This document shows positions 27,459 through 29,044 of a stretch of 64,000 bases of DNA, one piece after another. The position numbers were made by a program, and so were the translations under genes. The notes under the pieces are model-generated. The model made no database searches. It was given only the letters and a program-made list of their open reading frames with translations, and was not told where the DNA came from. Positions within the stretch are counted from its first letter, which is position 1, and every line of letters starts with the position of its first letter. The stretch covers positions 17,525 to 81,524 of the forward strand of contig JZEL01000029.1 of the NCBI GenBank assembly GCA_001567365.1, read 5' to 3'. Source of the DNA: Parcubacteria bacterium OLB19. GTDB taxonomy: Bacteria > Patescibacteriota > Minisyncoccia > Phycocordibacterales > UBA918.

Positions 27459-27514
27459 GTTAAATTACAGATGTATATAGTACCCGCTTTTCCCCAAAAC
27501 CACAAAGTGAAAAA

Positions 27515-27534
27515 CTATAGCATATATGCTATAG
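27515..27534. promoter_or_regulatory. perfect 20-bp palindrome ctatagcatatatgctatag, 10 nt upstream of the HTH-MurA start; candidate operator
   Basis: Reverse complement is identical. Lies in the 86-nt divergent intergenic region between mreB-paralog and HTH-murA. Confidence 0.4.
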
Positions 27535-27544
27535 TCACTACTGT

Positions 27545-29044
27545 ATGAAAAATATTGGACACAGTATCGCTGATTTACGCGAAACTAAAGGTTTAACTCA
27601 AGCGGATTTAGCAAAAATTCTTAACACCACTCAAAGTGCTGTAGCTCGGATAGAATCAGGTAACCAAAATGTCAGTGCTGACATGCTAAAAAGAATCAGT
27701 AAGGCCTTAGGCAAAAACCTGATCACACTCTCTCCAGGAACAGTAAATGTGGAGATAGAGGGTGGTAATAAATTAAGCGGTACAATTGAAACTAATACTT
27801 CTAAAAATGGTGCTGTTGGTCTACTTTGCGCCAGTCTTCTCAATCGTGGTACTACCACCCTTCACCGAATGCCCAGAATTGAAGAAGTTCACCGCATTAT
27901 CGAAGTTTTGGAAAGTATTGGTGTAAAAGTGGAGTGGCAGGGAAATTCAGTAATAATTACTCCACCTAAGAAATTAGCCCTTAATAAAATTGACGAAGAA
28001 GCTGCTAGGAGAACTAGAAGTATTGTCATGTTTATTGGTTCCTTAATTCATCTTCTACCAAAGTTTAGCTTGCCACAATCAGGCGGTTGTAAACTCGGTA
28101 GCCGAACAGTTATACCTCACTTCTACGCTCTTGAGCATTTTGGTGTTGACATAAAAACTACTGATAAAAGCTACGAAGTAACCAAGACACCCAAAACACC
28201 TGAAGAAATAATTCTCTATGAGTCTGGTGATACTGTAACCGAAAACACTCTTTTTGCCGCCGCCAAAACGCCAAGCACCACAATTATTAAATATGCCTCG
28301 GCTAATTATATGGTGCAGGAAATTTGTGTTTTCTTACAGCTGTTAGGGGTTAAAATTGAAGGAGTTGGGACTACCACTCTTAAAGTAACCGGAGTTGATG
28401 ATATTAATAAAAATGTTTCTTACACTCTTTCCGAAGATCCTACCGACAGCATGTTCTTTTTAGCTACAGCTATTGTCACCAACTCATCTATCAATATCAC
28501 ACGTTGTCCGATTGAATTTCTAGAACTTGAGCTATTAAAACTAGAGAAGATGGGTTTTAAATATACAAAATCAAAAGTCTATCTATCTGAAAATGGTTTT
28601 ACTAAACTAGTAGACATAACAACTAAACCATCAAAGTTGGTTGCGCTACACGAAAAAATTCACCCTTCAGTTTATCCAGGTTTAAATATAGACAACCTTC
28701 CCTTCTTTGCAGTTATTGCCACCCAAGCTGATGGACAAACTTTGATTCACGATTGGGTCTATGAGAAGAGAGCTATTTATTTTACAGAGTTGGAAAAACT
28801 GGGCGCCGATACCGTACTAGCTGATCCACATCGCATCTACATTACTGGTCCAACCAAACTAAAACCAAATGAGTTGATTTGTCCTCCCGCTTTACGCCCA
28901 GCCACCATTCTCCTCATTGCCATGCTTGGAGCCAAAGGCAGGAGTGTTCTACGCAATATCTATAGCATCAACCGTGGTTATGAAAAGCTAGTAGAGAGAT
29001 TGACTTCACTCGGAGCCAAAATTTCTTATTTAGATGAGTTTTAG
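27545..29044 (+). CDS. murA: UDP-N-acetylglucosamine 1-carboxyvinyltransferase MurA with an N-terminal XRE-type HTH domain fused in frame
   Basis: Residues 1-62 form an HTH_XRE (GLTQADLAKILNTTQSAVARIESGNQNVSADMLKRISKAL). The rest carries MurA motifs: IEGGNKLSGTI..SKNGAVGLLCASLL, catalytic-loop LPQSGGCKLGSR (Cys115 equivalent), C-terminal PALRPAT...RGYEKL. Confidence 0.75.
   Translation: MKNIGHSIADLRETKGLTQADLAKILNTTQSAVARIESGNQNVSADMLKRISKALGKNLITLSPGTVNVEIEGGNKLSGTIETNTSKNGAVGLLCASLLNRGTTTLHRMPRIEEVHRIIEVLESIGVKVEWQGNSVIITPPKKLALNKIDEEAARRTRSIVMFIGSLIHLLPKFSLPQSGGCKLGSRTVIPHFYALEHFGVDIKTTDKSYEVTKTPKTPEEIILYESGDTVTENTLFAAAKTPSTTIIKYASANYMVQEICVFLQLLGVKIEGVGTTTLKVTGVDDINKNVSYTLSEDPTDSMFFLATAIVTNSSINITRCPIEFLELELLKLEKMGFKYTKSKVYLSENGFTKLVDITTKPSKLVALHEKIHPSVYPGLNIDNLPFFAVIATQADGQTLIHDWVYEKRAIYFTELEKLGADTVLADPHRIYITGPTKLKPNELICPPALRPATILLIAMLGAKGRSVLRNIYSINRGYEKLVERLTSLGAKISYLDEF

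Follow-up and report, generated by a model that had tools for sequence, protein, structure and literature searches.

A helix-turn-helix domain fused to MurA and a conserved upstream palindrome point to negative autoregulation of murA in Patescibacteria

MurA, which fosfomycin targets, catalyses the first committed step of peptidoglycan synthesis. In a 64,000-nucleotide stretch of Parcubacteria bacterium OLB19 (contig JZEL01000029.1; the whole stretch is hereafter called the window), the gene for this enzyme begins with a DNA-binding helix-turn-helix (HTH) domain of the XRE type and is preceded by a perfect palindrome. Does this MurA control its own synthesis? An initial annotation of the DNA had proposed that an HTH–enzyme fusion autoregulates through the palindrome, and the proposal is well supported by comparison across genomes: the putative operator is invariant, stays with murA, and tracks homologous HTH domains. 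We consider it probable that the gene encodes a bifunctional MurA whose HTH represses its own promoter.

The open reading frame (ORF) runs without an internal stop from the XRE-type HTH directly into a full MurA domain. A Pfam search and the coordinates bore out the 499-residue architecture of the initial annotation, with HTH_3 at residues 8–59 (E 2.7e-14; 53.4 bits against a gathering score of 23) and EPSP_synthase (PF00275) at residues 72–486 (E 4.7e-41), the latter spanning profile positions 2–417 of 417. The catalytic Cys loop LPQSGGCKLGSR and the C-terminal RGYE that it had named were both found, the latter as part of an NRGYE motif. The AlphaFold2 (AF2) model, predicted as a single chain (monomer), had a predicted local distance difference test (pLDDT) score of 85.5 and a predicted template modelling score of 0.80. 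It comprises N-terminal helices at residues 4–14, 19–26, 30–38 and 45–55, a less confident linker, and then the MurA fold. According to Foldseek analysis against the PDB, the best matches were all MurA, with template modelling scores of 0.84–0.89 (normalised to the target), and none of the MurA structures among these top matches carries an added HTH.

The fusion is a shared property of the lineage. A protein search returned 8000 matches, and we examined the best 120 clusters (81–97% identity, 499–536 residues). Both Pfam domains were present in all 120, which derive from NCBI, JGI, ENA and Logan assemblies, and no stop separated the HTH from MurA in these orthologues. A genome scan, with one genome per species, identified relatives in 465 species-representative genomes, which carry the labels Paceibacteria, Nomurabacteria, Kaiserbacteria or Parcubacteria. 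Eighty loci were kept (72–92% identity), and these align from query residue 1–4 to 495–499 wherever the contig allows. Linker length and sequence are conserved across the fusions. Among 120 close orthologues, the mean frequency of the top residue was 0.86 in the HTH and 0.88 in the MurA domain, indicating that the HTH is about as conserved as the enzyme. The recognition-helix residues T28, T29, Q30, S31, A32, A34, R35 and E37 were invariant in 34 orthologues.

The enzyme part appears equally intact. Alignment to E. coli MurA, for which the sequence used matched PDB 1uae with 920 bits over residues 1–419, revealed that K22, N23, R91, C115, R120, D305, R371 and R397 (E. coli numbering) are all kept, and the same eight catalytic and substrate residues are invariant in the 34 orthologues. 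The NCBIfam subfamily model PRK09369 gave 302.1 bits against a cut-off of 297. Judged by these sequence features, the MurA part looks catalytically competent. The 64-kb window also encodes two penicillin-binding protein (PBP) transpeptidases, one Mur ligase and two MreB proteins, which indicates that the organism makes peptidoglycan. No second MurA was found in the window, or within 4 kb on either side of the gene in the 80 loci.

The palindrome was confirmed as perfect over 27515..27534, as initially annotated, and 10 nt (27535-27544) separate its end from the murA ATG. Even with three mismatches allowed, CTATAGCATATATGCTATAG has a single match in the window, with 0 expected from 100 shuffles. 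All 78 orthologous loci with upstream DNA, and the window, carry an exact ATAGC-N6-GCTAT, one site per locus and always upstream of HTH-murA; no other perfect copy occurs in approximately 760 kb of loci and the 64-kb window. Synonymous sites inside HTH-murA vary freely by comparison with the operator. The initial annotation had named a generic repeat as one observation that could undo its proposal. Single copy number per locus led us to reject such a repeat within the lineage, and elsewhere the palindrome lies mainly beside homologous HTH genes. The HTH coding region contains another palindrome with this geometry, ATGTCA-GTGC-TGACAT (ATGTCAGTGCTGACAT; 27669-27684, in the NVSADM codons), but the symmetry is present in only 2 of 52 orthologues, and we dismissed it as chance.

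A promoter scan identified GTGAAA-17-TATAGT with an upstream TG, placing an extended -10 element on the palindrome. Across 79 sites, the TG is conserved at +10/+11 and the hexamer follows TATAnT, with A at +16 in 73 and T at +18 in 74. The -35-like position is poorly conserved in orthologues, as expected where a promoter relies on an extended -10. The gap between the -10 and the ATG is 9 nt in the window and 6–11 nt in 62 of the 79 loci, and there is no Shine-Dalgarno sequence; the murA mRNA is therefore probably leaderless or near-leaderless. The same extended -10 design sits 6–9 nt before the ATGs at 29134 and 36318, also with no Shine-Dalgarno sequence; the elements themselves (TGATACAAT; 29118-29136 and 36303-36320) end 6–7 nt from the start codons, and leaderless mRNAs seem common in this genome. 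The gene at 29134 (631 residues) was read as priA and has no Pfam match.

Beyond the lineage, the palindrome accompanies relatives of the fused HTH. An exact scan of metagenome contigs for the 18-mer TATAGCATATATGCTATA returned at least 122 sites in at least 120 stretches, 93 of them evaluable. Among the matches listed, 77 of the 93 evaluable sites lie within 800 nt of a gene encoding a homologue of the fused HTH, and that gene is transcribed away from the palindrome. About 37 listed sites belong to stand-alone XRE proteins of 95–105 residues, with the start codon abutting the palindrome, about 24 to two-gene operons in which a Gp49-like toxin (PF05973) precedes an XRE antitoxin, and about 8 to HTH-MurA genes. 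By tblastn, 23 listed sites seemed to adjoin murA; closer analysis placed most of the remaining listed sites beside homologous small HTH genes or toxin–antitoxin operons and recognised about 8 sites as true HTH-MurA. The antitoxins of two stretches (L102 and L127) carry a recognition helix, TTQSAVARIE, identical to that of the window HTH, and the L102 HTH is 54.5% identical to it over 55 residues. The recurrence of the palindrome beside homologous HTH genes in unrelated contexts identifies it, on comparative grounds, as the predicted cognate operator of this HTH subfamily. By the same token, co-occurrence in unrelated operons argues that HTH and operator form a portable autoregulatory cassette that was recruited to MurA. 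Within the window, tblastn with three Gp49 toxins detected no such toxin, the neighbours of HTH-murA being mreB and priA, and no second HTH paralogue was found. Given that no toxin gene is present, HTH-murA is not a toxin–antitoxin module.

Two further arrangements emerged from the same scan. Two stretches carry two copies each of the 18-bp palindrome, with no detectable HTH gene nearby (L166 at 959 and 2013; L168 at 498 and 531); L168 is a highly repetitive, low-complexity contig. In three others (L119, L128 and L183), a 140-residue ORF with no Pfam match lies 8 nt from the palindrome and precedes the homologous HTH gene; its product may represent an unrecognised toxin family.

More distant fusions extend the operator family. 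An exhaustive search of representative proteins recovered deeper relatives, with full-length fusions down to 33–39% identity (P0131, P0134, P0136, P0144, P0146, P0209 and P0232). Most keep a palindrome of the same 6-4-6 geometry just upstream of the gene. It is ATATCA-TATA-TGATAT in L082 and L084 and ATATCA-(A/G)ATA-TGATAT in L209 and L210, and L085 has ATAACA-TATA-TGCTAT, with one mismatch in the left arm; upstream of the P0144 gene (L086), no clear palindrome of the family type was found. The family consensus is ATnnCA-N4-TGnnAT. Its half-sites lie one helical turn apart, with 10 bp between their centres, the spacing that a dimeric HTH bound to one face of the DNA should have.

Cultured Nonomuraea also encode the fusion, at 54% identity and in a cluster of 246 members. 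In three Nonomuraea species, the site ATCTCA-TATG-TGAGAT is identical and its flanks differ, in DNA of 70% G+C. In L081, this putative operator (ATCTCATATGTGAGAT) is 14 nt upstream of the annotated start, and its placement is much the same in the other two species. HTH-murA stands there in a conserved three-gene cassette, between a 567-residue formyltransferase/enoyl-CoA-hydratase protein and a tyrosine integrase. Its presence in three different genomic contexts suggests a mobile element, and the 54% identity between the Nonomuraea and Patescibacterial proteins suggests transfer between phyla.

Taken as a mechanism, the probable negative autoregulation would proceed as follows. The HTH, as a dimer, would bind ATAGCA-N4-TGCTAT over the extended -10 of its own leaderless promoter; the bound protein would cover the -10 and block RNA polymerase, murA would be repressed, and MurA would thereby limit its own synthesis. 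The self-regulating HTH–operator cassette would have pre-existed in small XRE proteins and Gp49/HigB-like antitoxins before it was recruited onto MurA. Computation establishes the domain architecture, how well it is conserved, the unbroken set of catalytic residues, an unvarying palindrome, and the pairing of that palindrome with this HTH subfamily in unrelated gene contexts; DNA binding, dimerisation, repression rather than activation, and enzyme activity are inferred.

Several points weigh against this proposal. Its support is wholly comparative. MurA enzymes are usually described as monomers, whereas the palindrome requires a dimer. The equivalog model TIGR01072 gave 292.8 bits, below its cut-off of 392.7, which marks HTH-MurA as a divergent MurA; stand-alone Patescibacterial MurAs, at 307–327 bits, likewise fall under this cut-off. 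In the metagenome scan, 16 of the 93 evaluable sites among the matches listed have no detectable HTH nearby, and chance matches are expected for an AT-rich 18-mer in a collection of this size. Finally, related lineages carry a stand-alone MurA beside catalytically dead fusions.

These dead fusions lend weight to another reading, in which the protein is a transcription factor whose MurA fold senses UDP-N-acetylglucosamine (UDP-GlcNAc), UDP-N-acetylmuramic acid (UDP-MurNAc) or phosphoenolpyruvate (PEP), and a separate MurA catalyses. In the seven distant fusions, the residue at the C115 position is K, E, P, P, K, G or N; none retains R91, and most lack R120 and R371 as well. Three of the fusions (L082, L084 and L085) are divergent from an operon whose stand-alone murA retains the catalytic residues, accompanied by murB in L082 and L085 and by a Mur ligase in L084; a Mur ligase gene also comes after each of the three fusions, with ddl in front of that gene in L082. 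A fourth (L209) adjoins murB and a relA/spoT gene, downstream of both and just after murB. Such proteins are likely to be pseudoenzyme regulators of cell-wall precursor genes. BzdR, which joins an XRE HTH to a sensor domain resembling shikimate kinase, offers a precedent, and the NCBIfam model for its family (NF006015) weakly matches the window protein, in the HTH part only (29.8 bits against a cut-off of 204). In the clade of the window, however, every catalytic residue is invariant, the PRK09369 score is comparable to those of stand-alone Patescibacterial MurAs (302 versus 311–329 bits), and no second MurA accompanies the gene, either in the window or in the 4-kb flanks of the 80 loci. The unfused members of the clade (L087 and L088) also lie in housekeeping contexts. 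We therefore regard a dedicated sensor as an unlikely account of the window protein.

A sensory role need not replace catalysis, and the occurrence of dead relatives beside murA and murB makes such a role plausible for the MurA fold. For the bifunctional, self-repressing enzyme that we favour, it is a speculative possibility, and one that falls somewhat short of even odds, that DNA binding responds to whether the MurA domain has substrate or product bound. A fuller and slightly more tentative version would make the domain a direct sensor of the peptidoglycan-precursor pool: when it closes on UDP-GlcNAc/PEP, or is locked by UDP-MurNAc and the PEP adduct, the fused HTH would dimerise differently or face the DNA in another way; UDP-MurNAc/PEP-adduct complexes of MurA are among the Foldseek matches in the PDB. 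Enzyme occupancy would then set murA transcription, and the dead sister group would set the divergent murA, murB, ddl and Mur-ligase operons. The outcome would be a BirA-like trigger-enzyme circuit at the entry to cell-wall synthesis, built from a toxin–antitoxin operator cassette and spread across Patescibacteria and into Nonomuraea.

It is far less probable that the palindrome is simply a feature of a bidirectional murA/mreB promoter, or an RNA hairpin or terminator, with the HTH acting elsewhere or on nothing. The right arm is indeed part of the extended -10, and TGCTATAGT can be read on the minus strand as well, 55 nt upstream of the mreB start. A left arm serving as a second -10 is contradicted by position -3, the mirror of the final T of the -10, which varies between loci (A in 20 of 79). 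Moreover, a co-directional upstream gene does not abolish the left arm: in L010, L014, L021 and L022, a co-directional gene and a terminator lie between mreB and murA, and the palindrome is fully intact. The left arm is lost where the HTH is absent. L088, with an unfused MurA at 60% identity in the same mreB/murA synteny, keeps TGCTATACT 6 nt before the ATG, but has AATGCA and a spacer of 5 nt on the left, so that the left half-site is not kept; by sequence it looks like a decayed half-site. L087, the second unfused relative, lacks the palindrome, and the gene upstream of it encodes a tRNA. As for an RNA element, a simple scan flags the palindrome as terminator-like on the minus strand, and the RNA fold amounts to -7.9 kcal/mol; yet the minus-strand T-run after the palindrome is not conserved, and a leaderless murA mRNA would exclude the palindrome altogether. 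A further point against both readings is that copies of the 18-mer in otherwise unrelated operons lie mostly beside homologous HTH genes.

That the fusion merely joins two genes through an assembly error or frameshift, a concern of the initial annotation, has a negligible probability and was rejected, as we found no point in its favour, the frame is uninterrupted in at least 120 independent clusters from NCBI, JGI, ENA and Logan, and the fusion recurs in cultured Nonomuraea isolates, including the complete chromosome CP045572.1.

The gene inserted between mreB and murA in the four loci above encodes a secreted protein of approximately 210–220 residues, with a signal peptide followed by an NGSFE.G..GW motif, and has its own terminator (L010, 3258-3887; L014, 3235-3891; L021, 3255-3884; L022, 3220-3888).

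In the window, murA and the divergent mreB share an 86-bp intergenic region. The initial annotation had described a divergent MreB2/ATPase operon here, and an MreB paralogue followed by a TraG/HerA-like ATPase was indeed found; the label MreB2 is reasonable, as another MreB lies at 14701..15774. The ATPase (915 residues; 23647-26394, minus strand) has weak TraG-D_C and HerA/DUF87 matches, and its pairing with mreB is kept in most orthologous loci. Beyond it lies a 763-residue ORF with no Pfam match (21333-23624, minus strand). It had also been suggested that the palindrome co-regulates mreB. The operator does lie 56 nt from the mreB start, and co-regulation of mreB in the window is possible, but the case is weak in general: the palindrome remains with murA where a co-directional gene and terminator intervene, and its left arm lacks the -10 signature. 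mreB is the murA neighbour in most loci and not in all. By eye, the minus-strand TTGTGG-17-TACTAT (27477-27505) could be the promoter of mreB itself; these candidate hexamers recur in several orthologues and were not listed by the simple promoter scan.

Elsewhere in the window, two MreB paralogues (14701-15774 and 26442-27458) and two PBP2/FtsI-type transpeptidases (5717-7438 and 11812-13509) are notable for a reduced genome. A V/A-type ATPase operon occupies 53525-60683 on the minus strand and includes the A and B subunits and a subunit I homologue. The terminator that we read after murA was not listed by the simple terminator scan. The features of the locus and of its relatives are given in Table 1.

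Table 1. Features of the HTH-murA locus in the window and coordinates of related loci (numbered within each locus where a locus is named).
Feature	Coordinates	Strand	Basis or remark
HTH-murA coding sequence	27545..29044	+	499 residues plus stop
XRE/Cro-C1 HTH domain, residues 1-62	27545..27730	+	Pfam HTH_3
HTH recognition helix QSAVARIES, residues 30-38	27632-27658	+	AF2 helices
HTH-to-MurA linker, about residues 56-70, GKNLITLSPGTVNVE	27710..27754	+	lower pLDDT (67-76)
MurA (UDP-GlcNAc enolpyruvyl transferase) domain, residues 69-495	27749..29029	+	NCBIfam, Pfam
Catalytic Cys182 codon, in Cys loop LPQSGGCKLGSR	28088-28090	+	read from sequence, alignment
20-bp perfect palindrome CTATAGCATATATGCTATAG	27515..27534	.	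putative operator of the fused HTH
Conserved palindrome core ATAGCA-TATA-TGCTAT	27517-27532	.	two 6-bp half-sites, centres 10 bp apart
Extended -10 TGCTATAGT	27527..27535	+	overlaps right half of palindrome
Weak -35-like hexamer GTGAAA	27507..27512	+	promoter scan
Intrinsic terminator after murA, GCTCCGAAGG-CTACG-CCTTCGGAGC then TTTTTT	29060..29090	+	read from sequence
Divergent mreB (second MreB paralogue)	26442..27458	-	Pfam MreB_Mbl, E 1.8e-126
Likely pseudoenzyme-group loci	L082 2624-5503; L084 95-5003; L085 1504-5530; L209 1388-5467		
Nonomuraea cassettes	L081 3281-7605; L211 1282-5657; L212 1248-5677		

If the proposal is true, HTH-MurA would provide a compact control of MurA, fitting for bacteria with genomes below 1 Mb and few regulators, at a step whose known controls have been worked out in a few model phyla. 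It would also exemplify how a regulatory circuit can originate, through the attachment of an HTH–operator cassette from toxin–antitoxin modules to a housekeeping enzyme, and in sister lineages the enzyme part would have decayed into an apparent dedicated sensor beside cell-wall precursor genes. Cultured Nonomuraea share the architecture and the operator type, so the circuit is open to bench tests that do not require growing Patescibacteria. The initial annotation knew of no described HTH–MurA fusion. In the literature accessible to our searches by keyword and exact sequence, we found no description of the fusion or of its operator; the architecture itself, however, is already present in public databases, where RefSeq Nonomuraea entries are named either MurA or 'helix-turn-helix domain-containing protein'.

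Among known systems, a close parallel in logic is BirA, the biotin protein ligase that doubles as repressor of the bio operon and is the textbook trigger enzyme. In each, an essential enzyme has an N-terminal DNA-binding domain and a palindromic operator over a promoter of its own pathway, and a single polypeptide unites catalysis with repression; for HTH-MurA, both the operator and this double function are predictions. BirA combines a winged HTH with another enzyme fold, whereas HTH-MurA carries an XRE HTH, and biotinyl-AMP drives the dimerisation and DNA binding of BirA, whereas ligand coupling in HTH-MurA is speculative. PutA, with a ribbon-helix-helix domain, and NadR, with an HTH, are likewise metabolic enzymes with DNA-binding domains that repress genes of the same pathway; they act in proline catabolism and NAD salvage, respectively, and neither touches cell-wall synthesis.

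For the DNA-binding part, the nearest relatives are the HigA-like antitoxins of Gp49 (PF05973)/HigB-type operons, which have a homologous HTH and an identical 18-bp palindrome upstream of the operon. These antitoxins bear an N-terminal extension of approximately 40 residues and end after the HTH, whereas in HTH-MurA the HTH is N-terminal and the chain continues into MurA. BzdR resembles HTH-MurA in pairing an XRE HTH with an enzyme-derived effector module and is the best analogue of the dead HTH-MurA-like sister group; its C-terminal fold is different, and the window protein keeps all catalytic residues. MurA itself is known to be controlled by ClpCP proteolysis with ReoM, ReoY and PrkA in Firmicutes, and by UDP-MurNAc feedback. 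These systems address the same problem, how to restrain the flow into peptidoglycan synthesis at its first committed step, but they do so post-translationally and through separate proteins, whereas HTH-MurA would act on transcription, with the control residing in the enzyme itself.

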